Of a stretch of DNA of 35,949 nucleotides, positions 13,702-35,855 are shown piece by piece; the stretch's first letter is position 1, and the number at the start of each line of letters is the position of its first letter. The notes beneath the pieces are model-generated. The model was not told the DNA's origin and searched no databases. It was given only the letters and a program-made list of their open reading frames with translations. Position numbers and translations under genes: made by a program. Source of the stretch: an uncultured Clostridia bacterium (lineage in GTDB: Bacteria > Bacillota > Clostridia > UMGS1883); assembly GCA_947630525.1 (NCBI GenBank), contig CANRHW010000001.1, forward strand, positions 1-35,949. Direction: 5' to 3'.

Positions 13702-14004
13702 TCATCCATATATAACTACCCCACTGCTTTTTATTTCCCTGTCTACTCTGGACTCCGGGCGTATCTGGCTTATATCCAGCAAATCGACCTCGTTTTCCAA
13801 GGCCGTGGAAACATCTTCCAGCAAGCCATAAAACGCCAGTCCACGCAGTCCGCTGTCCACAAGGATATCAATATCGCTTTTGGCCCGAGCAGTTCCTTTG
13901 GCATAAGAGCCGAACAGGACGGCCCGGCGCACATGGTGGGCCTCAAAGACAGGACTTAGGATGTCTTTTATTTGATTTACAGTGTAGGCGGCTTCCATCC
14001 TCAC
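13702..14004 (-). CDS. Minimal nucleotidyltransferase (MNT/MntA-like, Pol-beta superfamily), solitary
   Basis: 100 aa. [21 protein letters not shown] carries the GS...DxD nucleotidyltransferase motif. RBS GAGGTGAGG lies before ATG 14004. Confidence 0.85.
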
Positions 14005-14014
14005 CTCAAATCAA

Positions 14015-15234
14015 TTACTTTCCGAAAACCTTTTTTATCCTCTCAATGGCCTCGGCCGTAGCCTCCGCCGTGCCGAAGCCCGTCAAGCGGAAATAGCCCT
14101 CGCCGCTGGGGCCAAAGCCGCTGCCCGGAGTGCCGACCACATTGGCCTTATCCAGAAGCTCGTCAAAGAAATCCCAGCTTGTCATGCCCTCCGGCACCTT
14201 TAGCCATACATAGGGCGAATTTACGCCGCCGCTGACGCTGAAACCGGCCTGAGCCAGACCCTCGCGGATAATGCGGGCGTTATTCATGTAAAAGTCCACC
14301 AGTTCTCTTACCTGAGCCTTGCCCTCGGGGCTGTACACCGCCTCCGCGCCGCGCTGGACTATGTAGGGCACACCGTTGAACTTGGTGGTATGGCGCCTGT
14401 TCCAGAGAGAAGCCACGCTCACCTCGCCGACTTTAAGCTCCTTGGGGATAACCGTAAAGGCGCAGCGGGTGCCGGTAAAGCCGGCGTTTTTGCTGAAAGA
14501 ACGGAACTCGATGGCGCACTCTTTCGCGCCCTCAATCTCAAATATGCTGTGGGGCAAATCCTCGGTGATATAGGCCTCGTATGCGGCGTCGTAGAGAATA
14601 ACGGCCCCATTCGTCCGGGCGTATTCCACCCATTTTCTCAGCTCTTCATAGCCTATGGCCGCGCCGGAGGGATTGTTGGGGAAGCAAAGGTAGATTATAT
14701 CCGGCGTCCGCTCGGGGAGCTGGGCATAAAGCCGTTCTCCTCCAGGCAGGGCATATACACGAGATTTGTCCACATGCCGGTGCTTTCGTCATAGTCGCCC
14801 GCCCGGCCCGCCATGGCGTTGGTATCCACATAAACGGGATAAACGGGGTCGCATACGGCCACCACGTTGTCCACGCCGAAGATATCGCCGATGTTGCCGC
14901 AATCGCTCTTGGCTCCGTCCGAAACGAAAATCTCGTCGGGCGAAATATCCACGCCCCTGGCCTTGTAATCGTTTTCGGCAATGGCGTTCCTCAGGAAGTC
15001 GTAGCCCTGTTCGGGGCCGTAGCCCCTGAAAGTCTCCGCCGCGCCCATCTCGTCAACGGCTTTGTGCATGGCCTCGATAACGGCCTTTGGCAGCGGACGG
15101 GTCACGTCGCCTATGCCTAGGCGTATTATTTTGCTGTCCGGGTGGGCGGCGGAATACTCGTTCACCTTTTTGGCTATGGTGCTGAAAAGATAGCTGCCCG
15201 GCAGCTTAAGGTAATTTTCGTTAATTCTGACCAT
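14015..15234 (-). pseudogene. dapL: LL-diaminopimelate aminotransferase (DapL-type class I aminotransferase) with its reading frame broken by an apparent 1-nt deletion in a G-run
   Basis: Two overlapping track ORFs (14695..15234 and 14015..14773) encode the N- and C-terminal parts of one aminotransferase (...[15 protein letters not shown] | [17 protein letters not shown]...; [13 protein letters not shown]-lysine motif). One extra G in GGGG 14714-14717 would restore a continuous frame. Confidence 0.8.
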
Positions 15235-15274: not shown

Positions 15275-16111
15275 TTACCTGTAGTCCACTTCGGCGGCGA
15301 AGACTTCCGTTGCGGGGCCGGTCATGAACACGCGGTTGGTCTTTTCGTCCCACTGGATGAACAGGTCGCCGCCGCGGAGCTTTACCGTCACTTCGCGGTC
15401 GCAGAGGCCGTTAAGCACAGTTGAGACCGCCACCGCGCAAGCGCCGGTGCCACAGGCCCAGGTCTCGCCCGCGCCCCGCTCCCATACCCGCATACGCAGG
15501 GTCTTGCGGTCAATGACCTTGACGAACTCCGTATTGGTCTTGCGAGGGAACTTTTCGTGAGTTTCAAAATGGGGGCCTATTTTTTCTATATCCAGTCCCT
15601 CCACGTCGTCTATATAGACCACGGCGTGAGGGTTGCCCATAGAAACGCAGGTCACCTTATAATCCGCGCCCTGTACGGTTATGGGCCGGGATACCGCCAT
15701 ATCGTCATCAAAGCCGCAGGGTACCAGCTCCGGCTTTAGTATAGGTTCGCCCATATCCACGCGGACGGCGGCGACCTTGCCGTTCTCAACAGCGAGCTTC
15801 AGGTACTTTATACCGGCAAGGGTGGCTATGCTTATTTCCGTCTTGTCAGTCAGGCCGTGGTCGTAAACGTACTTGCCCACGCAGCGAATGGCATTGCCGC
15901 ACATTTCCGCGCGGGAACCGTCGCTGTTGTACATATCCATCTCAAAATCCGCAGTATCCGAGGGCTTTATGAGAACAAGGCCGTCGCTGCCCACCCAGAA
16001 ATGCCGGTCGCTGAGGTCCTTTGCCGCCCGGTGAGGGTCGGCGACGGTTTCCTCAAAACAGTTTACATAAATGTAGTCGTTGCCAATGCCGTGCATCTTT
16101 GTTATTTTCAC
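15275..16111 (-). CDS. dapF: Diaminopimelate epimerase
   Basis: 278 aa. [11 protein letters not shown], plus both catalytic Cys contexts ([18 protein letters not shown]). Confidence 0.95.
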
Positions 16112-16125
16112 AAAGCTCCACTCCC

Positions 16126-16686
16126 TTAATATACTATCTCGCCCGCCAATATTGCCTTGGCGGTATCTATCATTTTGCTGCCGTTGTTCATGCTCACCCG
16201 CTGGATAAAGCGGTGGGCCTGGTCCTCGGTCATGTTGTTCTGATCCATCAGCAGCTCTTTAGCCCTTGTTATAGTCTGTTTATCCTCATCGCTCCGGCCG
16301 GGGCGCTTATCCTCGCCGCTCTTTTTCGAGCTGGGCCGGTCGTTTATCATTATAACAGTTTTCAGTGTATCCAAAAGCGCGGTCCGGCTGACCGGCAAAT
16401 TCACGCTCTGTATGCCGTAGGGAATATCCACGGAGCCGGCCTGGTTCTGGGCCAGCAACACCATCATCCCCACGCCGGCGGGCAGATTTTCGTACAGTTC
16501 GGCCGCCGTGGTATCCTTTAGTCTGTAGCCGCAGACCACCGCCGATGCGGAAGCCCATTCCATCATGCGCAGGACCTCCGCCCCGCCGGAGCAAACTCCG
16601 CTCACACCGTAGCCGCCAAGCTGGACCACCCTGCGGATAGTCTCAGCCGCTTCGGGATTCTGAAAAGCAATTATCACACTTTTCAT
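16126..16686 (-). CDS. ANTAR-domain RNA-binding regulator with a receiver-like N-terminal domain
   Basis: The track ORF starts at 16710. ATG 16686 (MKSVIIAF...) has GGGGAG 9 nt upstream. The C-terminal [39 protein letters not shown] matches the ANTAR helices. Confidence 0.8.
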
Positions 16687-16730
16687 CAGCTTTGCTCCCC
16701 TCTCAAACATCTCGCCATAAGAGGAGGCGC

Positions 16731-18065
16731 TCAGAATTTGCCCAGATATTTGTCAAGCTCCCAGCGGGTGACCTGGGTGCGGTACTCGTCCCATTCCGCC
16801 CTTTTTGCCCGGGCGTAGTAATCGAACAGGCCGTCGCCCAAAGCCTCGCGCACAAGGCCGTCGCTTTCCATCGCGTTAAGGGCGGCCTCCAGCGTGCCGG
16901 GCAGGCTCTCGATGCCCATGCTGAGGCGCTGCTCGTCGCTGAGGCCGAAGATGGAAACGTTCACGCTCTCCGGCGGGGCAACGCGCTCCCTTATTCCTTC
17001 AAGGCCGGCTTTGAGAATGGCCGCCAGGGCCAGATACGGGTTACAGGTGGGATCGGGGCAGCGAAGCTCGACCCTTGTGCCCATACCCCTTGCCGCGGGT
17101 ATGCGTATGAGGGTGCTGCGGTTGGAAACGCTCCAGGATATGTAGCACGGGGCTTCATAACCGGGCACCAGCCGCTTGTATGAATTAACCGTCGGATTGG
17201 TCACCGCGGTTATGCCCTTGATATGCCTGAGCACGCCGCCGATAAAGCTGTATGCCAGCTCGCTGAGCCCGTCGGCGCTGCCGGCGTCGTAAAAAGCGTT
17301 GCCGCCCTTACCGTTCATAAGACTCATATTGGTGTGCATACCGCTGCCGTTTATGCCAAGGATGGGCTTGGGCATAAAGGTGGCGTGGAGGCCGTGGCGC
17401 TGGGCAATGGACTTGACCACCAGTTTAAAGGTGATAATATTGTCCGCGGTGCGCAGTGCGTCGTCGTATTTAAAGTCTATTTCGTGCTGGCCGGGGGCCA
17501 CCTCGTGATGAGAGGCCTCTATCTCAAAGCCCATTTCTTCTAACGTCTGGATAATATCCCGGCGGCAGTTTTCGCCCCCGTCGATGGGCGCCAGGTCAAA
17601 GTAGCCGCCCTCGTCGTTGGTTTTGACGGTGGGCCGGCCCTCCTCGTCGGTATGGAACAGAAAGAATTCACACTCCGGGCCCACGTTGAACGTATAGCCC
17701 ATGTCGGCGGCCTCTTTAATGGCCTTTTTCAGCACGTACCGCGGGTCGCCCTCAAAGGGTGTGCCGTCGGCCTTATAAACGTCGCAGATAAGGCGGGCCA
17801 CCTTGCCCTGCTGTGGCCGCCAGGGGAATATCGCAAAGGAATCCAGGTCGGGGTGCAGATACATATCCGACTGCTCGATGCTGACAAAACCGTCGATGGA
17901 CGAGCCGTCAAACATACACTGGTTTTCGAGAGCCTTTTTAAGCTGACTCTTCGTAACGGCCATATTTTTAAGCTGCCCGAAAATATCGGTAAATTGGAGG
18001 CGAATAAATTTTACGTCATTTTCCTCCACAAGTCTGATGATGTCGCTTTTGGTGTATTTGCTCAT
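16731..18065 (-). CDS. glnA: Glutamine synthetase, type I
   Basis: The track ORF extends to 18137. ATG 18065 ([30 protein letters not shown]...) has GGAGG 9 nt upstream and gives 444 aa, which is typical of GS-I. Confidence 0.95.
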
Positions 18066-18142
18066 TTGATTAACCTCCCCACGCGCCCGGGACCGTCCCT
18101 GGGCCGTGAATAGCCGAAAGGCCCCTTTGCCCTTCACGTAAT

Positions 18143-18171
18143 ATTATAACAGCCGCGGCAAAATATTTCAA
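18143..18171 (-). promoter_or_regulatory. Candidate sigma-70-type promoter of glnA
   Basis: Minus strand: TTGAAA (18171-18166), 17-nt spacer, TATAAT (18148-18143). This leaves a ~70-nt leader that contains the hairpin CGTGAA...TTCACG. Confidence 0.5.
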
Positions 18172-18308: not shown

Positions 18309-20660
18309 TTATTTTTTTATCGTGGTGCCCACCTTTTTTGCGGAAATAAGGCAGGATATAAGGTTGTTTTTCACTTTTCCGTTCAGTATTTCCACCTCGG
18401 AAACGCCGTTTTCCACAGCCTCCACTATATTGCTGAGCTTGGGTATCATTCCTCCGCCCACAAAGCCGTTTTCAATAAGCAGCCTTGCCCTGTCGGACGT
18501 CACGGTTTCAAGCACCGTCTTTTCGTTATTTTTGTCTATAAACAAACCGTTCACATCGGTGATGAACACCAGCTTGCCCGCCCGGAGCTCCCGGGCCAAG
18601 GCCGTGGCCGCATCGTCGGCGTTGACGTTGAGCGGCTCGCCGTACGGGCCGGAGCTCACCGGAGAAACGACCACCACATAGCCCGCGTCAAGGAGCTGAT
18701 TTATAAGGCGGCAGTTGACCGAGGTTATCTCGCCCACAAAGCCAAGCTCCGCCCCGCCGGCAGTTTTGCGCCGGGCCGAAAGAACGCCGCCGTCCCGGCC
18801 GCTGATGCCGACGGCCTTTACTCCGCAGTCCGAAATTGCGCCCACGAGCTTTTTGTTTACGCTGCCGCTGAGTATCATTTCAACAACGCGTATTTCCGCC
18901 TCGCCGGTGACCCGGTAGCCGTTTTCAAAACGGCTCTCAATGCCCAGGCTGCCAAGCATGGAGCTTATCTCCTTGCCGCCGCCATGGACTACGGTAACTC
19001 TCGCCCCCACCATGGACAGCAGAGAAATATCCTCCATCAGCGAACGGGTCAGGGCCTCGTCTTCCATGACGCTGCCCCCCAGCTTAATCACCACGTTGCG
19101 GCCGTAAAGCCGATGCAGCGCCGGCAGTATATCCTGAAAGCCCCGTATTTTTTCAGTGGCGTCTATCTCGTGCACTACGTCGTATTCGTCAAGGAATTTC
19201 TTCGTGTATTCCACATCGCTGGGGCAGTCGATGTACTGTATGCCCCGCTTCTGCCGGGTCTCGTCGCCCTTGCCGGTCACAAGAACCACCGTGGGCCCGT
19301 CGCAGTCCATTATGGCGCGGCGTATGGCCTCGCCCCGATCGTCTATTATCTCATATTCCCCTCCGGCGGCGGCCACATGACCGGCGATTTCGGCGGATAT
19401 CCGCCCGATAGGCTCCTCGCCGGCATCCTCCTCGGTGATATACACCTTTTTGGAGTACCGTCCGGCAATAAGGCCAAGGTCACGGCGGCGGTCAAAGGCT
19501 TTGTTGCCGGGGCAGCCGAAAACCGCCGTTATGGCACGGCCGGGATATTCCCTGCGCACCGAAGAAAACAGATTTTCAAAGCTCAGCTTATTGTGAGCGT
19601 AGTCCACTATGACCGTAACGGTCTTGTCCGCGTTGGCGTAAACCTCCATACGCCCCTTGCTGCGGGCCTTCATAAGCCCCGTCAGCATATACTTGCTTTC
19701 AATGCCAAGGGCCATGGCTATGCCTATGGCGGCAAGGGCGTTTTCCACGTTGAACAGACCCGGTATGGTCAGGGTAAATTCCATGTCAAAGTCCTTTGTC
19801 CTCACCATAAAAGCCGTGTCGCTCTCGTTTTTATGCACCCCGTAGGCGAACACGTCCGCGTCCGCCCGCTTCTGCGAAAAGGTTATTACCCGCCCGGCGG
19901 CCTTTGCGGCCGCGGCCACCTCCTCCGCATGGTCGCAGTCAAGGTTTATGACGGCGGTTTCGCACTGCTCAAACAGTTTGAGCTTGGACTTGAAGTAATC
20001 CTCAAAATCCGGATGCTCTATGGGGCTGATGTGGTCTATGCCTATATTCAGGAAGCAGCCCACGGTAAAGCCCACCCCGAAAACCCTGTCATATTTCAAA
20101 GCCTGACTTGAAACCTCCATGATCAGGCAGTCGATGCCGCTTTTCACGGCATTGTCAAAATGGCGGTGCAAATCGAAAGGCTCCGGCGTGGTCAGGTGGC
20201 TTTCAAAATTCTCGACCCCGTCATAGGTGTCGATGGAAGAAATTATGGCCGACTCCTTTTTGCCCTGGGCGCGCATGGCCTCGTCAAGGATATATTTTAC
20301 AAAATACGCCGTGGTGCTTTTGCCCTTAGTGCCGGTTATGCCCACAAGGCTGAGCTTTTCCCAGGCGCTGCCGTAATAATAGTTCGCCATCAGCGCCATT
20401 GCCCGGCGCACGTCGTCCACAAGTATGCAGTCGCCGGGGACGTCCAACTTTTTTTCGGCCACATAAGCCACGGCCCCCTTTTCAAAGGCGGCGGCCAGGT
20501 ATTCGCTTTTAAAATGAGCACCCTTGCAAAGGAAAAGGGTGTCCGGCCTGACGTCGTTTGAATTACAGGAAATATAAGCTATCCGCCGATCCGGCTCCCC
20601 AAGGGTCTCGGTTTTTAATCCGCCGGCCTCAAACAGCCCGGCAAAATCTCTGAGTGTCAT
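18309..20660 (-). CDS. murE/argB: In-frame fusion protein: N-terminal Lys-type MurE Mur ligase plus a C-terminal acetylglutamate kinase (ArgB, amino-acid-kinase fold)
   Basis: 783 aa. N-terminal ~500 aa: GITGTKGKSTTAYF, IMEVSSQAL, LNIGIDHISP, VDYAHNK, VTGKGDETRQ, with TEEDAGEEP where DAP-type MurE has DNPR. C-terminal ~270 aa: VVIKLGGSVM, VVHGGGKEI, LNVNADDAATALA, GGGMIPKL. The junction is continuous: ...KFLDEYDVVHEIDATEKIRGFQDILPALHRLYGRN... Confidence 0.85.
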   Translation of the reverse strand: MTLRDFAGLFEAGGLKTETLGEPDRRIAYISCNSNDVRPDTLFLCKGAHFKSEYLAAAFEKGAVAYVAEKKLDVPGDCILVDDVRRAMALMANYYYGSAWEKLSLVGITGTKGKSTTAYFVKYILDEAMRAQGKKESAIISSIDTYDGVENFESHLTTPEPFDLHRHFDNAVKSGIDCLIMEVSSQALKYDRVFGVGFTVGCFLNIGIDHISPIEHPDFEDYFKSKLKLFEQCETAVINLDCDHAEEVAAAAKAAGRVITFSQKRADADVFAYGVHKNESDTAFMVRTKDFDMEFTLTIPGLFNVENALAAIGIAMALGIESKYMLTGLMKARSKGRMEVYANADKTVTVIVDYAHNKLSFENLFSSVRREYPGRAITAVFGCPGNKAFDRRRDLGLIAGRYSKKVYITEEDAGEEPIGRISAEIAGHVAAAGGEYEIIDDRGEAIRRAIMDCDGPTVVLVTGKGDETRQKRGIQYIDCPSDVEYTKKFLDEYDVVHEIDATEKIRGFQDILPALHRLYGRNVVIKLGGSVMEDEALTRSLMEDISLLSMVGARVTVVHGGGKEISSMLGSLGIESRFENGYRVTGEAEIRVVEMILSGSVNKKLVGAISDCGVKAVGISGRDGGVLSARRKTAGGAELGFVGEITSVNCRLINQLLDAGYVVVVSPVSSGPYGEPLNVNADDAATALARELRAGKLVFITDVNGLFIDKNNEKTVLETVTSDRARLLIENGFVGGGMIPKLSNIVEAVENGVSEVEILNGKVKNNLISCLISAKKVGTTIKK

Positions 20661-21364
20661 TTGCTATCACCTTTCAACCTTCCCCCGCAGAGCGTGACGC
20701 AGCGTTCCACAAGCACCTTCATCGCGTCCACGTAATAGCTGTCAAGCTCGTGATTGGCCCTGAACACGCTGAGTTCGGTGCAGGCCAGTATGGCGCCGTC
20801 GCAGCCGTTCTTTTTCAGATAGTAGTCCACGGCGGCAAAGTCCTCCCTGCTGCCCTTTTGCCCAGCCTTTATCTGGTCGTAAATAAGGCCCATAACTATC
20901 TTCTGCCGCCGCTCGTCGGGCACAAAGGGTTCCAGCCCCCGGCGGCGCAGAGCGTCGTGATACAGTCCGGCGTCAAGGGTGCCGTTGGTGGCCAGTATGC
21001 CTATACGGCCGCCCGGATGGATACGGCTGACATACCCGGCAGTTTCCTCCACCATGTTTATCACAGGTATGTCAACGCTCTTTTCCACATAGCCGATAAC
21101 GCTGTGGCTGGTGTTGCAGGGTATGGCGATGACATCCGCGCCGAAGCGGCGCAGCTTGACCGCGTCGTCCGCCAGCAGCCGGCCCAGCTCGGCCGCCCGC
21201 CCCTCTCTGAGGGCGGCGGTGCGGTCGGGCATGGAGGCGTGGCTGTAAAGGATTATATCTATGTGATCCTGGTCCCGGGACGCGTCGGTAAGGCTGATGA
21301 TCTCCCGGTACATTAGCTGCGAGGCCTCGGGCCCCATGCCGCCGATTATTCCCAGTGTAAGCAT
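20657..21364 (-). CDS. Aspartate racemase (Asp/Glu/hydantoin racemase family)
   Basis: 235 aa. MLTLGIIGGMGPEAS, plus both catalytic Cys contexts (AIPCNTSH, ILACTELS). ATGA overlap with the murE::argB start. Confidence 0.85.
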   Translation of the reverse strand: MLTLGIIGGMGPEASQLMYREIISLTDASRDQDHIDIILYSHASMPDRTAALREGRAAELGRLLADDAVKLRRFGADVIAIPCNTSHSVIGYVEKSVDIPVINMVEETAGYVSRIHPGGRIGILATNGTLDAGLYHDALRRRGLEPFVPDERRQKIVMGLIYDQIKAGQKGSREDFAAVDYYLKKNGCDGAILACTELSVFRANHELDSYYVDAMKVLVERCVTLCGGRLKGDSK

Positions 21365-21371
21365 AAAAGCC

Positions 21372-22583
21372 CTACTTTCCCAGATATTTTTTGTATTTCC
21401 CGAAATGGGACAGGTGCTGCTTCATTAGCCTAAGCAGACGGCCGGGCTTATTGTCGCCCTTGTAAAAGAGGGGATTAACCGTCTTGCCCTGACGTATAAG
21501 GGATTTCATTCTGGTGCGGTATTCGGCGGGCTTTATGTAGTCGAAGGCCACCTTTTCGGGCACGACGAGCCAGAGATTTTCCCTGTCGGCATAGACCGTT
21601 TCTCCCAAGTCCTCGCCAAGTATTCGGTCGCGCACTACATACTCCGCAATGTTGTAGCCCGCGCCGGTGACATAAAAGTTGCTGCGGCCCTGGCGGACGT
21701 TTATCTCAAACACCTTGAACTTTTTATCCCTCTGGTCATACTTTATATCGAAGTTTGAAAAGCCCGTAAAGCCTATCTCCTCCAGCAAAGCCTGGAATTT
21801 TTCCATAAGCCGGCGGTCGCACTCGTTAATTATCACGGCGTGGTTGCCTATGCCGTAGGGGGTGTGCTCTTCAAGCAGCACATGGCCCAGGCACATGAGC
21901 TTTACCTTGCCGTTTTTGTCGGAATAGTTGGTCAGCACCCGCATATACGTGTCGTCGCCGGGGATAAAATCCTGCACGATAAGGTTGTCCTTATAGCCGC
22001 TGTTATACACGGCCGCAACCGTCTGGCGCAGTTCTTCAAGGCTGGACAGCTTGAACACCTTTTTCTGCCCCTCAAAGGGGTGGGCAAAATACTCGGGGCC
22101 GTTGCAGGGCTTCAAAATATAGGGGGCGTCAAAGTCCGGCGTAACTTCCATGGTGTTTTTGGTGCAGACATAGGTGGCGGGGTACTCGATGCCATGCTTG
22201 TCGCAGAGGGCGTAAAACCGCTCCTTGTCCATGAGCTCGGCCAACTGCGCGCCGTTTCCGTAAGGCGCGACTATATTCGGGGCCAGCCTGTCCATGTTGT
22301 TGGCGATGAGCCGCACGTAACCGTCGCCGCAGCCTATGAGCAGCACCGTTTTGGTCTGGGCCGCCGCGAACTCGTTTACACGCCTGACAAAAACCTCCGG
22401 GTCGTCTATATCCGGCTCGGTGCGCTGATCTATCATTCGGCTTTCGGCGCAGGGAGCGCCGGGCTTTTTGCCTATGGAAGTAGAGCGGAGGCCATAGGCC
22501 TCATGAAAGGCCCTTGCCACGCTGTACACATTGATGTCGTTGCCCAAAAGCAAAGTAACAAAATCCTGTTCCTTAAATTCCAT
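21372..22583 (-). CDS. ATP-grasp carboxylate-amine ligase of the D-aspartate ligase (Asl)-like family
   Basis: 403 aa. N-terminal LLLGNDINVYSVARAFHEAYG, ATP-grasp core (YILKPCNG..., LIVQDFIPGDD..., FDIKYDQRDKKFKVFEINVRQGRSNFY). It sits directly upstream of an Asp racemase, like the Asl/Rac pairs of Lactobacillales. Confidence 0.7.
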   Translation of the reverse strand: MEFKEQDFVTLLLGNDINVYSVARAFHEAYGLRSTSIGKKPGAPCAESRMIDQRTEPDIDDPEVFVRRVNEFAAAQTKTVLLIGCGDGYVRLIANNMDRLAPNIVAPYGNGAQLAELMDKERFYALCDKHGIEYPATYVCTKNTMEVTPDFDAPYILKPCNGPEYFAHPFEGQKKVFKLSSLEELRQTVAAVYNSGYKDNLIVQDFIPGDDTYMRVLTNYSDKNGKVKLMCLGHVLLEEHTPYGIGNHAVIINECDRRLMEKFQALLEEIGFTGFSNFDIKYDQRDKKFKVFEINVRQGRSNFYVTGAGYNIAEYVVRDRILGEDLGETVYADRENLWLVVPEKVAFDYIKPAEYRTRMKSLIRQGKTVNPLFYKGDNKPGRLLRLMKQHLSHFGKYKKYLGK

Positions 22584-22606: not shown

Positions 22607-23329
22607 TCAGTCTCTCAAAAAATCCAGCACCGCTCCGTTTACCCGGTCGGCTGCCTTGTCAAACACAAAGTGGTCGCAGTTCTGCACGATTTTAAGCTCA
22701 GCCCCCGGAATCGAGCCGGCAATAAGCTTAGTGTGGGCGGGTTTTATCATATCGCGGCTGCCGGCCAGCACCAAAACGGGAACCTTGATCTTATTCAATT
22801 CCGCGGCGCTGATATTCGGCTCGCGCACCATGAGCGACATAACCGCGAGCTTGCGGCGGGCGGCGCTTTCGCGCTGGGCCTTTTTGGCCAACAGCTTAAA
22901 GCCCATTTCAATGGGGAGCTGGTATATCTCCTTTACCCCCCGGGGATTTAGATTGCCGCCGGCAAGGACGGCCTTTTCTATAACGCCGTTTTTATCGCCG
23001 AGCAGCATTTCCAAAGCGGCGTTTGCCCCGTCGCTAAAGCCCACCACGGCGGCCTTTTTGACGTCCAGCGCCTCGAGCAGAGCAAAGCCGTCGGCGGCTA
23101 TCTGGGCCACCGTCAGCTTTTTGCGGCCGAAAGTGGAACGCCCCTGCCCGCGGCTGTCCATAGCGATAAGGGTATATTCCCGGCTCCAGTCTTCAAACTG
23201 CTTCTTGAAGCAGGCGGAGCTTTCGCCGTTTCCGTGGAGGAGCAGAATATGCTTATCTCCCCCGCCGTATATCTCAAAGTATATTTGGGCCGTGTCTATC
23301 TGGATGTATCCGGTTTTGGCAGGCTTCAT
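22607..23329 (-). CDS. Alpha/beta-fold hydrolase
   Basis: 240 aa. HGNGES oxyanion region, GFSDG nucleophile elbow, GSRDM and CDHF acid/His contexts. Confidence 0.8.
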   Translation of the reverse strand: MKPAKTGYIQIDTAQIYFEIYGGGDKHILLLHGNGESSACFKKQFEDWSREYTLIAMDSRGQGRSTFGRKKLTVAQIAADGFALLEALDVKKAAVVGFSDGANAALEMLLGDKNGVIEKAVLAGGNLNPRGVKEIYQLPIEMGFKLLAKKAQRESAARRKLAVMSLMVREPNISAAELNKIKVPVLVLAGSRDMIKPAHTKLIAGSIPGAELKIVQNCDHFVFDKAADRVNGAVLDFLRD

Positions 23330-23376: not shown

Positions 23377-23405
23377 ATTATACCACAATTTTTTCCATTT
23401 GTAAA
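23377..23405 (-). promoter_or_regulatory. Strong sigma-70-type promoter with an extended -10, driving the hydrolase/ATP-grasp/racemase/murE::argB operon
   Basis: Minus strand: TTTACA (23405-23400), 17-nt spacer ending in TGG, TATAAT (23382-23377). About 48 nt upstream of ATG 23329. Confidence 0.6.
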
Positions 23406-31913: not shown

Positions 31914-34900
31914 TTAGTCCTCAGCCTCTTCAATATATACGCGCTGATACTTGTCGCTCCAGTTCACCTCGCAGCCGAAGCCCTCGGCAATGGCGCGTAC
32001 GGGAACCATGGTCCTGTTGTTTATGAGCTGAGCGGGTACGTCAAGCTCCTTGGCGGCGCCGTTCACATAGAGCTGATTGGAGCCGATAGAAATGCTGACG
32101 GTGATATCGCCCCTTACGGCGGTAGCGGTGCTTGTAGCGTCGTCCCACTGAACGTCGGCGCCCATGGCCTCAAATATGGCGCGGAGAGGAACCAAAGTTC
32201 TGTCATTTACAATAACGGGAGCCTGGCCGTAAGGCGTAAAGTCGATATTCTTGCGGTCATAGCCTACAAGTATCTCGCTGTCGAAGGGCACGTTTTCATC
32301 CACATGACCCACCGGCTTGCCGTAAATGGCAACCTCCTGAGGCTTGCCGCCCCAAAGCGCGGACTGGTTATTGTTCTGGATATTCTTAACATCCTCAACG
32401 GTTACCTTAACATATCTGTAAGGAGTGGTGTCGGTAACCCAGCCTACATGGAAGCCGCCGTCGTCGTCATTATTGTCGGTCACGTCGGCTATCATGGTCC
32501 AGTTGCTCATGTCGTTGCTGCCGTAGGCCTTGTAATAAGACGCGCATACGGAACCCATGTAAATATCATTGGTCAGGTTTACCTCGGTGATAACGGTGGG
32601 CGTTTCAAGGTCTACCACAATGTCAAAGGGAAGATTGTCCACCTCGGCCACGGGAGAGGCCTGCATCTGGAGGTTATCGGTAAGCTCCGGGGCCTCGCGG
32701 CCGTTGATGGTGGCCTTCTTGCCGAGAGATACGTACTCGCCGGACTGAACGGCGATAGCGCCCCAGTAGGGGTCATATTCCATGCGGTAGCACCATGCGC
32801 CGGTAGCTATACCGTTGTTGATGGCCAAGTGGAAGAAACGCTGATAGTTATTCCTTCTCCAGCCGCCGCTCTGGCCCCAGTTATAGCCGTGGCCGCGCTG
32901 AACAACTCTGCCGGAATCACTGCCATAGCCCCATACGCCGTTGGCCTGAGTGCCAAAGGTAGAGGTATTGGCAACCTCGCGCAGGGGGCTCCACGCCTGG
33001 TCAAGGGCCGGGCTGCTGGAATAGCGGGCCTGACTCTGGAACCAGCCGTTGGTGGTGGAGGTATATACGTAATAAGCGTTGCCGTCGTGGAATACGGAGG
33101 GAGACTCCTGATGCTGGCCTTTGAGGATAATATTGGTGATCTCGGCGGGAACTACCCAGTTGTCCTGAAGCTTCATGATCATCATATCCTGATTGTTGTT
33201 GGTGGCGCTGAAGGTGTAAAGGTCATGGCCGTCAACAAAGCGCACCATATCTCTGGAGTCGTGGCCAAAGGGACGGCCAACGTACCAGCCGGAAAGCTGG
33301 TTTGTACCGGCGTTGTCATAGAGCTCGTACTGTTCGAGCTGGTCCATATGGTTGATTATCTGGCCGGTAGCGGGAATTACATAGAACGGATCGACCTGAT
33401 GGTCGCCCTTGCCGGGTTGGAAGGTGGCAAAGAACAGCTTGGAGCAGGCGAAGCCGTTGCCCTCGGCATGGGCCGAGAAAGAAATCGTCTCGCCGTCATA
33501 TTTAAGACCGTTCTGCTTGCCTTCCATACGAATGTCCACAAAGATGGGATAGGCATAGGTCCAATCGTTGGGCCAGTTAAAGCCGTCGTCGCTCTCCTTG
33601 TAGCGGATAGCCATAACGGAGCAGGCCTTGTCAAAGTTAGCCAGGTCCTCATCGCTGGTGAAGCCCAGGGACATGAAGGTTTCCTTATTGATACCGTCGA
33701 GGCCCACGCTGTAATACTTGTCGCCGATGTGGTAGCCGCTGGGAGAAGGCTCGACCACGCGGTTGGGATCCTCATTGGGCTTCCAGCCGCCGTTAACGTT
33801 GTCGTCATAGCCGTTGGAATCATTCACGTCTATGGCGAAGGTCATAACGGTGTTGGTGGTGCCTGTGGCGATAGTCGCCCCGTCGGAATCAAGAGCAAAA
33901 ACCGTGTAAGAGATGTTCTTGTTGATAGGCAGGTCGTACTCGTCCAGGCAGTCGCCGATAGCCGTGCCGATGAGAACATTGTCCCTGTAAACGGCATAGC
34001 TGGCGGCGCCGGGATACATGGGCCAGCCTATTTTTACGTTATTTACCGTGTTTTCGCCCTCTATGCGGTATTCCGCGGCGGTGGCGTTCCAAGGCTGATT
34101 GTAGACCCAGGCTTCAACGATGCCGGTCATGGTGCCGTTGGACGCTATCGTCCGGGCCTTTACATGGGCCGTACCGTTGGCGAAGAAAGGACCGGTGTAT
34201 TTCGTGCTCTGGGGGGTGGGGTCGGTGCCGTCCAGAGTGTAATAGATGTAGTTGGAAGCGTAATGGCCGATAGTTATGGGCTCGTAGGTGTCCACAAGAT
34301 AGTTTTCGCTGCCGCCGCTGACATTCATAACGGGGGTAACGTAGCCGGCCATGTACTCGTCGATATCCTGAGCGGTCAGGGCGCGGTTGAACACATAGAT
34401 ATTGTCAACATAGCCCGTACCGGCCAGAGCCAGAGAGGAGATGCCGCTGAGCACGCCGGCCACATTGTAGCCGCCGGGAGCGGAAACAAGCGCGCCGTTC
34501 ACATAAAGCCTTATCTCACCGGCCGAATAGGAAACTACCACCTTTTTCCAGGCCGTACCAACGCCCGCCGCGGAAACGCTGCCCTCGGGGGCGGCGGCGG
34601 TAACAACCGAGCCGGTGTCGGTAACGGTAAACCTCGCGCCCGCGTCGGCAAGAATAATGCCGTCGGTATCGGAGGTCTTGCTGTCATAGGAAATTGTAAA
34701 GGAATCAAGGCCGCTGAGAGCCACGGAATTGATGAGCATTCCGCCCGCGCCGGGTTTCACGGCATTACCAAAGCACTCCATAGAGGGCTCCGTCACGTAA
34801 TCGCCGGAAAGGCTTGCGCCGTAAGGCTCCTTGTCAAAGTCAACGGAAGCGAGCAGACTGTCGCCGGCGTCCGTCGGGAGCAGAGTAACGTTTACGTCCT

Positions 34901-35855
34901 TGCGGTTGCCGTTCCACACCATGGTGAGGCGCACGTTTTTCGGAGCCTCGCCGTAGGCGGGGCGGTTGACGGCGCCGGTCACGGGGTCGATGGCGGCGGG
35001 ATCTTCCGACTCCCACGTAAGGCCGGTGAAATCGGGCAAATCAATGTTGCCGCGTATCTTCATACCCTCCATGGAAGCGGTCTGCTTCTGGAGATTTTCC
35101 CATATGGCGGGGCCGTTGGCGTCAACGTCGATATCCACGGTTATTTTCAGGCCCTGCATGGCCATGGCGGCGTACTGATTGTTCCACTGGCCAAGGTTGG
35201 CGCTGATGCTGCCGATACCGTTGATGGAGGCTACCGTTTCGGTGCCCACGTTTTTGCCGTTGCTGGTATATGTAACCGTCCAGCTTCCGCCGTTCTTGGC
35301 GGCGACTATCTGCATGGACGTACCGCGGAGAGCGTAAACCGCGTCTTTGCCGTCGGCATAGGTGGCCGCGCTGGAACCGCCGGCGCCGGCCGTAGCCTTA
35401 ACGCCCTGATCGTAATATACGGTGGCAAAGGTGTTGCCATCCAAGTCTTTAAAATACCATGTCTGGTAGTTATTGTCCTCATCCTGCATGGCGAAGGTGT
35501 AGTCGATGACGATTTTTTCCGCCCCGGCGCTTATTTCCCTGCCGGATATATTGGCGGTTTTGTCCTCGTCATTGCCATCCTGCCTGGCGCCGACACGCCA
35601 GAACATAAGGCCCGCCGCGCCCCAGGGGTCGGTGTTCCAGGTGCCCTTATTGCTCCACTGAGAGCTGAATACGGCGCCCTGATCGCCGGACCAGCCGTAG
35701 TTGGTCAGAGCGATGTCGCCATGCGTGCTTGTGTCGAGCATGGATGCGTCGAACAAAACATAGCTCCCCGCAGCCGCGCTGGCCGTTATGGCCATCATGG
35801 GCACACAGGCAATCACCATGGCCAGAGCAACGGCCAATGATAAAATTTTTTTCAT
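31914..35855 (-). CDS. Large secreted, wall-anchored multidomain glycoside-hydrolase-like protein with LamG-like, FN3-type, GH43-like beta-propeller and discoidin-like segments and 2x CuAO_N-type repeats
   Basis: 1313 aa. Signal peptide MKKILSLAVALAMVIACVPMMAITASA. LamG-like ...GEIRLYVNGALVS...YVDNIYVFNRALTAQDIDEY. IYYTLDGTDPTPQSTKYTGPF (chitobiase-C/FN3-associated type). Propeller-like ...QESPSVFHDGNAYYVYTSTTNGW... Discoidin-like ...YRYVKVTVEDVKN... C-terminal RTLVPLRAIFEAMGADVQWD and RTMVPVRAIAEGFGCEVNWS. RBS AAGGAGAG lies before ATG 35855. Confidence 0.85.
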   Translation of the reverse strand: MKKILSLAVALAMVIACVPMMAITASAAAGSYVLFDASMLDTSTHGDIALTNYGWSGDQGAVFSSQWSNKGTWNTDPWGAAGLMFWRVGARQDGNDEDKTANISGREISAGAEKIVIDYTFAMQDEDNNYQTWYFKDLDGNTFATVYYDQGVKATAGAGGSSAATYADGKDAVYALRGTSMQIVAAKNGGSWTVTYTSNGKNVGTETVASINGIGSISANLGQWNNQYAAMAMQGLKITVDIDVDANGPAIWENLQKQTASMEGMKIRGNIDLPDFTGLTWESEDPAAIDPVTGAVNRPAYGEAPKNVRLTMVWNGNRKDVNVTLLPTDAGDSLLASVDFDKEPYGASLSGDYVTEPSMECFGNAVKPGAGGMLINSVALSGLDSFTISYDSKTSDTDGIILADAGARFTVTDTGSVVTAAAPEGSVSAAGVGTAWKKVVVSYSAGEIRLYVNGALVSAPGGYNVAGVLSGISSLALAGTGYVDNIYVFNRALTAQDIDEYMAGYVTPVMNVSGGSENYLVDTYEPITIGHYASNYIYYTLDGTDPTPQSTKYTGPFFANGTAHVKARTIASNGTMTGIVEAWVYNQPWNATAAEYRIEGENTVNNVKIGWPMYPGAASYAVYRDNVLIGTAIGDCLDEYDLPINKNISYTVFALDSDGATIATGTTNTVMTFAIDVNDSNGYDDNVNGGWKPNEDPNRVVEPSPSGYHIGDKYYSVGLDGINKETFMSLGFTSDEDLANFDKACSVMAIRYKESDDGFNWPNDWTYAYPIFVDIRMEGKQNGLKYDGETISFSAHAEGNGFACSKLFFATFQPGKGDHQVDPFYVIPATGQIINHMDQLEQYELYDNAGTNQLSGWYVGRPFGHDSRDMVRFVDGHDLYTFSATNNNQDMMIMKLQDNWVVPAEITNIILKGQHQESPSVFHDGNAYYVYTSTTNGWFQSQARYSSSPALDQAWSPLREVANTSTFGTQANGVWGYGSDSGRVVQRGHGYNWGQSGGWRRNNYQRFFHLAINNGIATGAWCYRMEYDPYWGAIAVQSGEYVSLGKKATINGREAPELTDNLQMQASPVAEVDNLPFDIVVDLETPTVITEVNLTNDIYMGSVCASYYKAYGSNDMSNWTMIADVTDNNDDDGGFHVGWVTDTTPYRYVKVTVEDVKNIQNNNQSALWGGKPQEVAIYGKPVGHVDENVPFDSEILVGYDRKNIDFTPYGQAPVIVNDRTLVPLRAIFEAMGADVQWDDATSTATAVRGDITVSISIGSNQLYVNGAAKELDVPAQLINNRTMVPVRAIAEGFGCEVNWSDKYQRVYIEEAED

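Follow-up and report, generated by a model that had tools for sequence, protein, structure and literature searches.

Fusion of a MurE ligase to an acetylglutamate kinase in Oscillospirales-type Clostridia, with a possible role in supplying ornithine to the cell wall

A single open reading frame (ORF) in an uncultured Clostridia bacterium (assembly GCA_947630525.1, contig CANRHW010000001.1) joins a MurE-type Mur ligase directly to an N-acetylglutamate kinase (NAGK, or ArgB). It lies on the minus strand at positions 18309..20660 of the 35,949 nt stretch of DNA analysed here, referred to below as the window, and consists of an ATG start, 783 codons and a TAA stop. The product is predicted to be truly bifunctional, its two active sites being separate and intact, and both halves are likely to be active. 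A tentative case can be made that it combines this bifunctionality with a feedback-resistant kinase serving wall-linked supply, most plausibly of ornithine. Both parts belong to known families, and what is new is the architecture, its setting among cell wall genes and the fact that arginine control seems to have been lost. No description of a MurE-ArgB fusion was found in the literature searched, which agrees with the statement in the original prediction, made from the letters of the window alone, that no characterised enzyme of this kind was known.

That one 783-codon ORF unites the two enzymes, as had been proposed, is borne out by the ORF listing, by Pfam and NCBIfam domain matches and by full-length homologues. 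The MurE half (residues 1-498; 19167..20660, minus strand) is composed of the UDP-MurNAc-binding N-terminal, central ATPase and C-terminal domains, and is matched by the Pfam models Mur_ligase_M (PF08245; residues 108-315, E 9e-41) and Mur_ligase_C (PF02875; residues 336-465, E 7e-24). It is followed by the NAGK half (residues 499-783; 18312..19166, minus strand), which includes the N-terminal helix typical of hexameric NAGKs and an AA_kinase match at residues 523-760 (E 2e-44). Both halves also match solved structures in the PDB, and the fusion passes the cut-offs of the NCBIfam murE subfamily model TIGR01085 (296.5 bits, cut-off 257.3) and of the argB equivalog-domain model TIGR00761 (222.1 bits, cut-off 151.3). 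Each of the motifs previously quoted for the two halves is present in the translation: GITGTKGKSTT (residues 107-117), MEVSS (181-185), NIGIDH (205-210), DYAHNK (353-358), TEEDAGEEP (409-417) and GKGDETRQ (463-470) in the ligase, and FQDILPALHRLYGRNVVIKLGG (508-529), HGGG (559-562), NVNAD (678-682) and GGGMIPK (735-741) in the kinase. Conservation was counted over the best 120 protein clusters, defined at the 90% identity level, and the retention of catalytic and substrate-binding residues throughout these family members supports the earlier impression that both halves are catalytically intact. Within the Mur-ligase P-loop (residues 107-117; 20310..20342, minus strand), for instance, G107, T109-K114, T116 and T117 do not vary and conservation is at least 90% at I108 and S115, and elsewhere in the MurE half E182, H210, K226 and D353-N357 are invariant or nearly so.

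All of these 120 clusters contain the three domains within 778-821 residues, at identities down to 55%, and a second search seeded with an Intestinimonas member yielded 119 more full-length clusters of 781-835 residues, together with one partial protein of 640 residues. Searches with tblastn confirmed at least 533 fusion stretches in contigs representing one genome per GTDB species. The locus counts given below refer to the best 80 of these stretches, which come from independent assemblies, contain a complete fusion gene and are full-length or nearly so, at 53-88% identity; all belong to Clostridia, including Oscillospiraceae, Candidatus Fimenecus, Evtepia, Lawsonibacter, Intestinimonas, Pseudoflavonifractor phocaeensis and similar taxa. 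The fusion is confined to such Oscillospirales-type Clostridia, in which it forms one tight family: a library clustered at 50% identity holds a single full-length representative plus fragments, and the next matches in it are ordinary MurE proteins of 500-513 residues, up to 56% identical, which align to residues 3-498 of the fusion and so place the end of its MurE part at around residue 498. The full-length database search advocated in the original prediction therefore returned matches spanning both halves, from a defined group of taxa. Its alternative, that the fusion might turn out to be a widespread and already characterised case of co-translation, was right as to the spread, over at least 533 species, but not as to the characterisation.

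An assembly artefact can be ruled out as the source of the fusion, as the same ORF recurs in hundreds of independent assemblies. A more specific concern had been an indel at the junction, to be checked by mapping reads; this is excluded without reads by the full-length homologues, the independent assemblies and the nearly gap-free alignment of the junction itself. Residues 470-525 are free of gaps in 119 of the 120 family members, the other having a gap of 1-3 residues at positions 498-500, and the positions conserved in at least 92% include Y476, D482, V483, L490, D494, D500, E503, K504, I505, L512 and P513. The codons for E503-K504-I505, at the domain junction, read GAA AAA ATA and hence contain a run of six adenines (19140-19160, minus strand); the conservation of these three residues in 92-97% of the family validates the reading frame across the run.

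The junction proper (residues 499-507, IDATEKIRG; 19140..19166, minus strand) leads from the last MurE helix to the NAGK N-helix. In an AlphaFold2 model built from the family alignment, with a mean predicted local distance difference test (pLDDT) score of 87 and a predicted template-modelling (pTM) score of 0.74, these helices occupy residues 482-496 and 501-516 (the latter as helices at 501-504 and 508-516), and the sole stretch with a pLDDT below 50 is residues 502-506. The two halves are thus modelled as being joined by a short hinge with no linker, and their relative orientation in the prediction shows no sign of being fixed. The direct joining of a complete N-helix of the hexameric NAGK type to the last MurE helix, across a conserved junction, would suit a kinase half retained as a structural or regulatory module, either oligomerising MurE or sensing NAG (N-acetylglutamate), ATP or nitrogen status in order to gate wall precursors; the glutamine synthetase gene (glnA) and the ANTAR-domain regulator gene found downstream of the fusion in the window and its two closest relatives could be read in the same way. 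However, a scaffold would not need its catalytic Lys, Asp and Gly residues to be strictly invariant, the hinge at residues 502-506 and the pTM of 0.74 show no fixed interface, and the glnA neighbourhood is found at three loci only. Such a role is considered improbable.

The closest structural matches of the kinase half are the NAGKs of S. elongatus (2jj4, E 1e-61) and T. maritima (2bty, E 5e-60), with those of A. thaliana and P. aeruginosa also found, whereas the match to the dimeric E. coli enzyme (EcNAGK; 1gs5) is far poorer (E 2e-28). The alignments begin inside the N-terminal helix, from residue 6 of the P. aeruginosa and residue 30 of the S. elongatus protein. Judged by its sequence, the kinase half derives from the hexameric, arginine-inhibited class of NAGK and has kept the N-helix. 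In EcNAGK, ATP, the transferred phosphate and NAG are bound by K8, G11, G44, G64, R66, N158 and K217 (PMC3236213). Placed on the fusion by motif correspondence, their equivalents K526, G529, G561, G581, R583, N678 and K741 are invariant in 120/120 members; G528, H559-G562, N680 and D682 are further conserved residues. Because the ATP-, phosphate- and NAG-binding residues do not vary, the substrate of the kinase is probably NAG.

By contrast with these substrate-binding residues, the arginine site appears to have been lost. Its signature consists of E-L-F-(T/S)-x-x-G-x-G-T and an aromatic residue in the N-helix, Tyr15 in the T. maritima enzyme (PMC3236213), and all four solved arginine-sensitive NAGKs (2bty, 2jj4, 2rd5 and 2buf) possess both ALP[YF] and E-[IL]-[FM]-[ST]-x-x-G-x-G-T. 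Alignments to these four structures put A514, within the N-helix of the fusion (residues 500-518; 19107..19163, minus strand), at the site of the Tyr or Phe; across the family this position is Ala in 99 of 120 members and aromatic in none. The remainder of the signature is degraded to CLISAKKVGT (residues 770-779; 18324..18353, minus strand), the position of the Phe being occupied by Ile, Leu or Val in all 120 members, that of the first Gly by Gly in none, and that of the Glu by Glu in only 12. Since the arginine-binding signature has gone, the kinase is, on balance, likely to operate without arginine feedback. Mean identity within the family is 53-56% for the kinase half as against 62-64% for the MurE half, indicating that the kinase evolves faster.

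In at least one species, the fused kinase appears not to be the housekeeping ArgB. The fusion of Intestinimonas butyriciproducens (P0418) is found in the order RecJ, RelA, ATP-grasp, racemase, HTH, fusion, M16 peptidase, with arg genes absent. For I. butyriciproducens ER1, a published table lists ArgG (peg.655), ArgH (peg.656), ArgC (peg.657), ArgJ (peg.658), ArgB (peg.660), ArgD (peg.661) and ArgF (peg.662) (PMC9026213 Table S2A). Being flanked by argJ and argD, ArgB peg.660 cannot be the fusion gene, and the species therefore has a canonical argB in addition to the fused copy. An arg-cluster argB is likewise listed for F. plautii and P. capillosus (PMC9026213 Table S2A), two species in which presence of the fusion was not confirmed. 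A housekeeping ArgB would be expected to have an arg-operon context and to be the sole argB; neither holds for the fusion, judging by the 80 loci and the I. butyriciproducens table, and no arg genes were found within 10 kb of the fusion at any of the 80 loci.

The MurE half matches solved MurE structures over residues 21-475, the best being enzymes that add diaminopimelate (DAP; E ~1e-53). In place of the DNPR specificity motif of these enzymes it has TEEDAGEEP (residues 409-417; 19410..19436, minus strand), from which the arginine is deleted; all 120 members share T-E-E-D-x-G-E-E, and the DNPR arginine is present in 0/120. HMMER alignments set E-D-A-G opposite the D-N-P-R of the M. tuberculosis enzyme and leave a gap exactly at R416 of E. 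coli MurE, and over the alignments to solved MurEs the motif opposite DNPR is either E-D-A/P-G or an E-D-A that lacks the Arg position. In the DNPR motif, arginine is the residue that binds the distal DAP carboxylate, and the Lys-adding enzyme of S. aureus is characterised by having an acidic pocket and no such arginine (PMC3829189). Given this role, the deletion of the arginine argues that the MurE half is of the non-DAP type. The NCBIfam equivalog models for DAP-type MurE (EC 6.3.2.13) all score far below their cut-offs, and the equivalog for L-Lys-adding MurE (EC 6.3.2.7, NF010628 / PRK14022) is not reached either (337 bits, cut-off 536). Acidic and free of Arg, the specificity loop reads TEEDxGEE rather than D(D/N)P(N/A), and is compatible with Lys or Orn. 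The substrate should accordingly be one of these two amino acids, which are inseparable by sequence; the designation 'Lys-type MurE' in the original prediction holds in so far as it excludes DAP, whereas the motif leaves both Lys and Orn. Glu411, at the position of S. aureus D406, was considered as a compensation for the shorter side chain of Orn, a proposal that was dropped as the position is variable in the wider stand-alone subfamily (D/E/Q/M/K/I), where only the following Asp is constant. No motif data for Orn-type MurE were found in the literature searched.

The genomic context of the fusion is the cell wall and not arginine. In the window, the fusion ATG overlaps the TGA stop codon (ATGA) of an aspartate racemase gene (20657..21364, minus strand; PF01177, E 3e-42), the product of which scores 206.9 bits with the asp_race model TIGR00035, against a cut-off of 93.1. 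Translation of the fusion is thereby coupled to that of the racemase, as it is in most relatives. Seven nucleotides upstream of the racemase gene is that of an ATP-grasp protein (21372..22583, minus strand), a putative D-aspartate ligase on the basis of a weak ATP-grasp_3 match and of homologues, 56-59% identical, to which JGI gives the name 'D-aspartate ligase'. An ATP-grasp gene is found upstream of the fusion at 48/80 loci and a racemase gene at 45/80, immediately so at 41 of them. Together, the ATP-grasp protein, the racemase and the MurE half would constitute a tool-kit for D-Asp-bridged (A4-type) peptidoglycan. At 11 loci, named Lawsonibacter loci included, an alanine-racemase-like gene is added upstream; where this 355-codon gene (Ala_racemase_N, E 7e-43) lies ahead of the ATP-grasp, racemase and fusion genes, as at L056, L057, L061, L068, L069, L070, L074, L078, L082 and L083, a four-gene wall cluster with two racemases results.

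The position of the fusion gene differs even between members of a genus. In I. aquisgranensis and some Intestinimonas metagenome-assembled genomes (MAGs; L059, L064 and L067) it directly follows mreC, mreD and a class-B penicillin-binding protein (PBP) gene, and in contigs of the I. butyriciproducens type (L090 and L091) it follows RelA, ATP-grasp, racemase and HTH genes, such that it has been relocated within Intestinimonas. Variation in genome position between lineages, and the location of the fusion outside DCW1, the cluster in which most Clostridia have murE (PMC8136486), would be expected if the whole cassette, including the fused MurE, were accessory to a canonical dcw-cluster MurE and made a conditional precursor, for example for the spore as opposed to the vegetative wall. 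Against this, the fusion passes the MurE subfamily cut-off, follows mreC-mreD-PBP at some Intestinimonas loci, and has no second murE within 10 kb, or indeed a second argB, at any of 83 loci, although this last is a weak test. An accessory system of this sort is accorded only a slight probability.

Neighbour-joining trees of the MurE part, with 46 sampled fusions and 50 bootstraps, recover the fusions as one clade that admits at most one stand-alone protein in 38/50 replicates. This protein, P0125, falls inside the fusion clade in 49/50 bootstraps and is up to 63% identical to one fusion subclade; it is a MurE of 508 residues found on 18 contigs, in the order RelA, ATP-grasp, racemase, MurE. 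Neither a kinase half nor a decayed argB remnant was found downstream of MurE in the P0125 lineage. These relationships are most simply explained by a single fusion, after which the kinase half was lost at least once. As the P0125 lineage has the cassette and lacks the kinase, the wall cassette does not require the kinase, which is accessory to it. At three P0125-lineage loci from human gut metagenomes (L084-L086), MurE is followed by a gap of 440 bp and then by genes encoding proteins of 868 and at least 1246 residues, the first without a Pfam match and the second with none on record.

It had also been suggested that the kinase acts on a carboxylate of the muropeptide or of its D-Asp branch. 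Recruitment of the domain as a kinase for a wall-related carboxylate, in preparation for amidation or transfer, would accord with the wall-gene context of most loci, with the status of the domain as a paralogue beside a canonical argB, and with the established chemistry by which MurE and NAGK both form a gamma-glutamyl phosphate on an N-acylated glutamate. It is nonetheless disfavoured, and hardly probable: G581, R583 and N678, which bind NAG, do not vary and the ArgB equivalog cut-off is passed, MurE and ATP-grasp ligases themselves activate the carboxylates they use, the 80 loci contain no amidotransferase partner, and the cassette of the P0125 lineage works without the domain.

To our knowledge, stem-peptide synthesis and the first half of the arginine pathway intersect metabolically only in L-ornithine, as the residue at position 3 of the stem peptide. 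L-Orn at this position defines the A3-beta and A4-beta chemotypes, and walls combining L-Orn with D-Asp occur in nature. In the reading preferred here, fusion to MurE would cause a feedback-resistant NAGK to be expressed together with the wall-precursor genes, and this NAGK would keep the acetylated route from glutamate to ornithine running alongside the synthesis of wall precursors, at any level of arginine. The most economical reason would be that L-ornithine is the position-3 residue used by, or limiting for, the fused MurE, and the outcome would be an L-Orn-D-Asp wall. The 'Rosetta-stone' link between peptidoglycan and arginine metabolism that was originally put forward would survive in this form, sharpened to one of ornithine supply. 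That ornithine is what connects the kinase to the MurE half is doubtful, and it seems unlikely that a large clade of gut Oscillospirales has L-Orn-containing, D-Asp-bridged peptidoglycan, its ornithine secured by a feedback-resistant second NAGK welded to MurE.

Several considerations weigh against ornithine supply. A feedback-resistant ArgB alone yields no ornithine if argC, argD and argJ are repressed, and the insensitivity to arginine is itself read from the binding-site signature. The evidence for a second argB comes from one species, in a published curated table. The kinase is dispensable for wall chemistry, at least in the P0125 lineage, and in the Fimenecus group the fusion is flanked by genes of unrelated kinds, for an MFS_2 transporter and a metallophosphoesterase, the D-Asp genes not being nearby. 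No usable wall chemotypes that would tell Orn from Lys were found for Flavonifractor, Intestinimonas, Lawsonibacter or Oscillospiraceae in the literature searched, and known D-Asp-bridged walls mostly use Lys.

The main rival to an ornithine link is that the two activities are unlinked, a Lys-adding MurE and an ordinary or spare NAGK isozyme having been joined by loss of a stop codon and co-translated since, whether harmlessly or for the sake of equal expression. Consistent with this, both halves resemble standard enzymes, the kinase half has been lost once while the cassette was kept, it evolves faster than the MurE half, and arg or ornithine genes are not nearby at the 80 loci. Yet at least 533 species retain the fusion, with a nearly indel-free and strongly conserved junction, and the arginine-site signature has been lost family-wide while every catalytic residue stays. 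In addition, the arg operon of I. butyriciproducens has a separate argB, and a neutral redundant copy would be expected to decay. The lost signature and the arg-operon argB of I. butyriciproducens similarly count against the proposal, raised with the original prediction, that two housekeeping enzymes are merely co-translated. Unlinked activities are judged unlikely.

Each component of the fusion has recognisable counterparts. Like the L-Lys-adding MurE of S. aureus (4C12/4C13; PMC3829189), it has a three-domain Mur ligase with a P-loop, K226 at the position expected of the carbamyl-lysine, and an acidic specificity loop without the DNPR arginine; unlike that enzyme, to which it is only distantly related (E 1e-25), it has T-E-E-D-x-G-E-E instead of D-N-P-A in the loop, and a C-terminal kinase of 285 residues. 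With the hexameric NAGKs 2BTY, 2JJ4 and 2BUF (E 1e-61 to 4e-51) it shares the fold, the N-helix and the catalytic and NAG-binding residues, but differs in the replacement of the N-helix Tyr/Phe by Ala, in the degraded arginine signature, in a kinase N-terminus that continues from MurE, and in a gene located outside the arg operon.

Similarly, Mur ligases joined to a second enzyme in one chain are represented by MurE-MurF (NCBIfam NF008896) and by the 803-residue 'Multifunctional fusion protein' 8F5D of the PDB, which we take to be chlamydial MurC-Ddl and which has no match to the kinase half. Their partners carry out consecutive steps of peptidoglycan-precursor synthesis, whereas the partner in the present fusion belongs to arginine/ornithine biosynthesis. 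A D-aspartate ligase and an aspartate racemase reportedly form a pair (Aslfm/Racfm) in Enterococcus faecium and Lactococcus lactis. The fusion loci resemble this system in that an ATP-grasp gene, its ligase name being taken from the JGI annotation of homologues, adjoins an aspartate racemase gene and the pair sits next to a gene for wall-precursor synthesis; the system as described includes no link to murE or to a kinase. Finally, the bifunctional NAG synthase/kinase (NAGS/K; PMC3236213) and the NAGK of yeast Arg5,6 (PMC3329491) also demonstrate that a NAGK domain is tolerated within a longer chain, and their extra domains modulate arginine control (PMC3236213, PMC3329491). There, however, the partners catalyse neighbouring steps of the arginine pathway and lie C-terminal to the kinase, while MurE is N-terminal and belongs to another pathway.

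The fusion is of interest as an undescribed combination of textbook enzymes that hundreds of species in a dominant gut clade have conserved, and it yields a testable wall-chemotype hypothesis for organisms with essentially unstudied peptidoglycan. NOD1 senses DAP-type fragments and NOD2 senses muramyl-peptides, and the wall chemotype decides which innate-immune receptors muropeptides engage. If the ornithine hypothesis is true, abundant commensals would shed Orn-type and not DAP-type muropeptides, and the fusion would be without precedent in attaching an enzyme of amino-acid biosynthesis to a Mur ligase as a module dedicated to supplying its substrate. A natural NAGK apparently free of arginine feedback is also of interest for ornithine and arginine production. 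Fusion proteins of 780-796 residues (P0014, P0064, P0119, P0418 and P0453) are usually called 'acetylglutamate kinase' in NCBI, JGI and UniRef, and in one MAG the label is 'UDP-N-acetylmuramoylalanyl-D-glutamate--2,6-diaminopimelate ligase'. Either name conceals one half of the protein, and the DAP label is probably wrong; the 'acetylglutamate kinase' label masks a probably essential murE, and metabolic reconstructions can miscount argB as a result.

The remaining features of the window concern the surroundings of the operon. Upstream of the ATP-grasp gene lies an alpha/beta-hydrolase gene (22607..23329, minus strand; Abhydrolase_1, E 1e-16), conserved only in the closest relative (L004) and perhaps heading the operon in this lineage alone. 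It is preceded by a sigma-70-like promoter match (23377..23405, minus strand) comprising TTTACA, a 17-nt spacer and TATAAT with a TG extension, agreeing at 11/12 positions; the match is to the consensus alone, and the region contains no more sites of this kind than expected from shuffled sequence. A terminator scan gave no minus-strand match in the operon, and an Rfam scan of the whole window revealed no leader or riboswitch. Directly downstream of the fusion, at 15275-18137 on the minus strand, are glnA (glutamine synthetase type I), the ANTAR-domain regulator gene and dapF, an arrangement common only to the window and its two closest relatives, L007 and L008. A strong sigma-70-like match (TTGAAA, 17-nt spacer, TATAAT; 18143-18171) lies upstream of glnA.

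Beyond these genes, a dapL-like (LL-diaminopimelate aminotransferase) gene, identified by eye, occupies 14015-15234 on the minus strand as two overlapping ORFs in different frames, an N-terminal part of 179 residues (14695-15234) and a C-terminal part of 252 residues (14015-14773). The split is a frameshift, as had been suspected, and reflects either an assembly error or a pseudogene. Between this and a purC-like gene, an ORF of 100 codons (13702-14004, minus strand) appears by eye to be nucleotidyltransferase-like (GS-x-A-x-G, D-x-D). At the far end of the window, an ORF of 1313 codons (31914-35855, minus strand) has a signal-peptide-like start (MKKILSLAVALAMVIACVPMMAITASA) and probably encodes a large secreted or surface protein.

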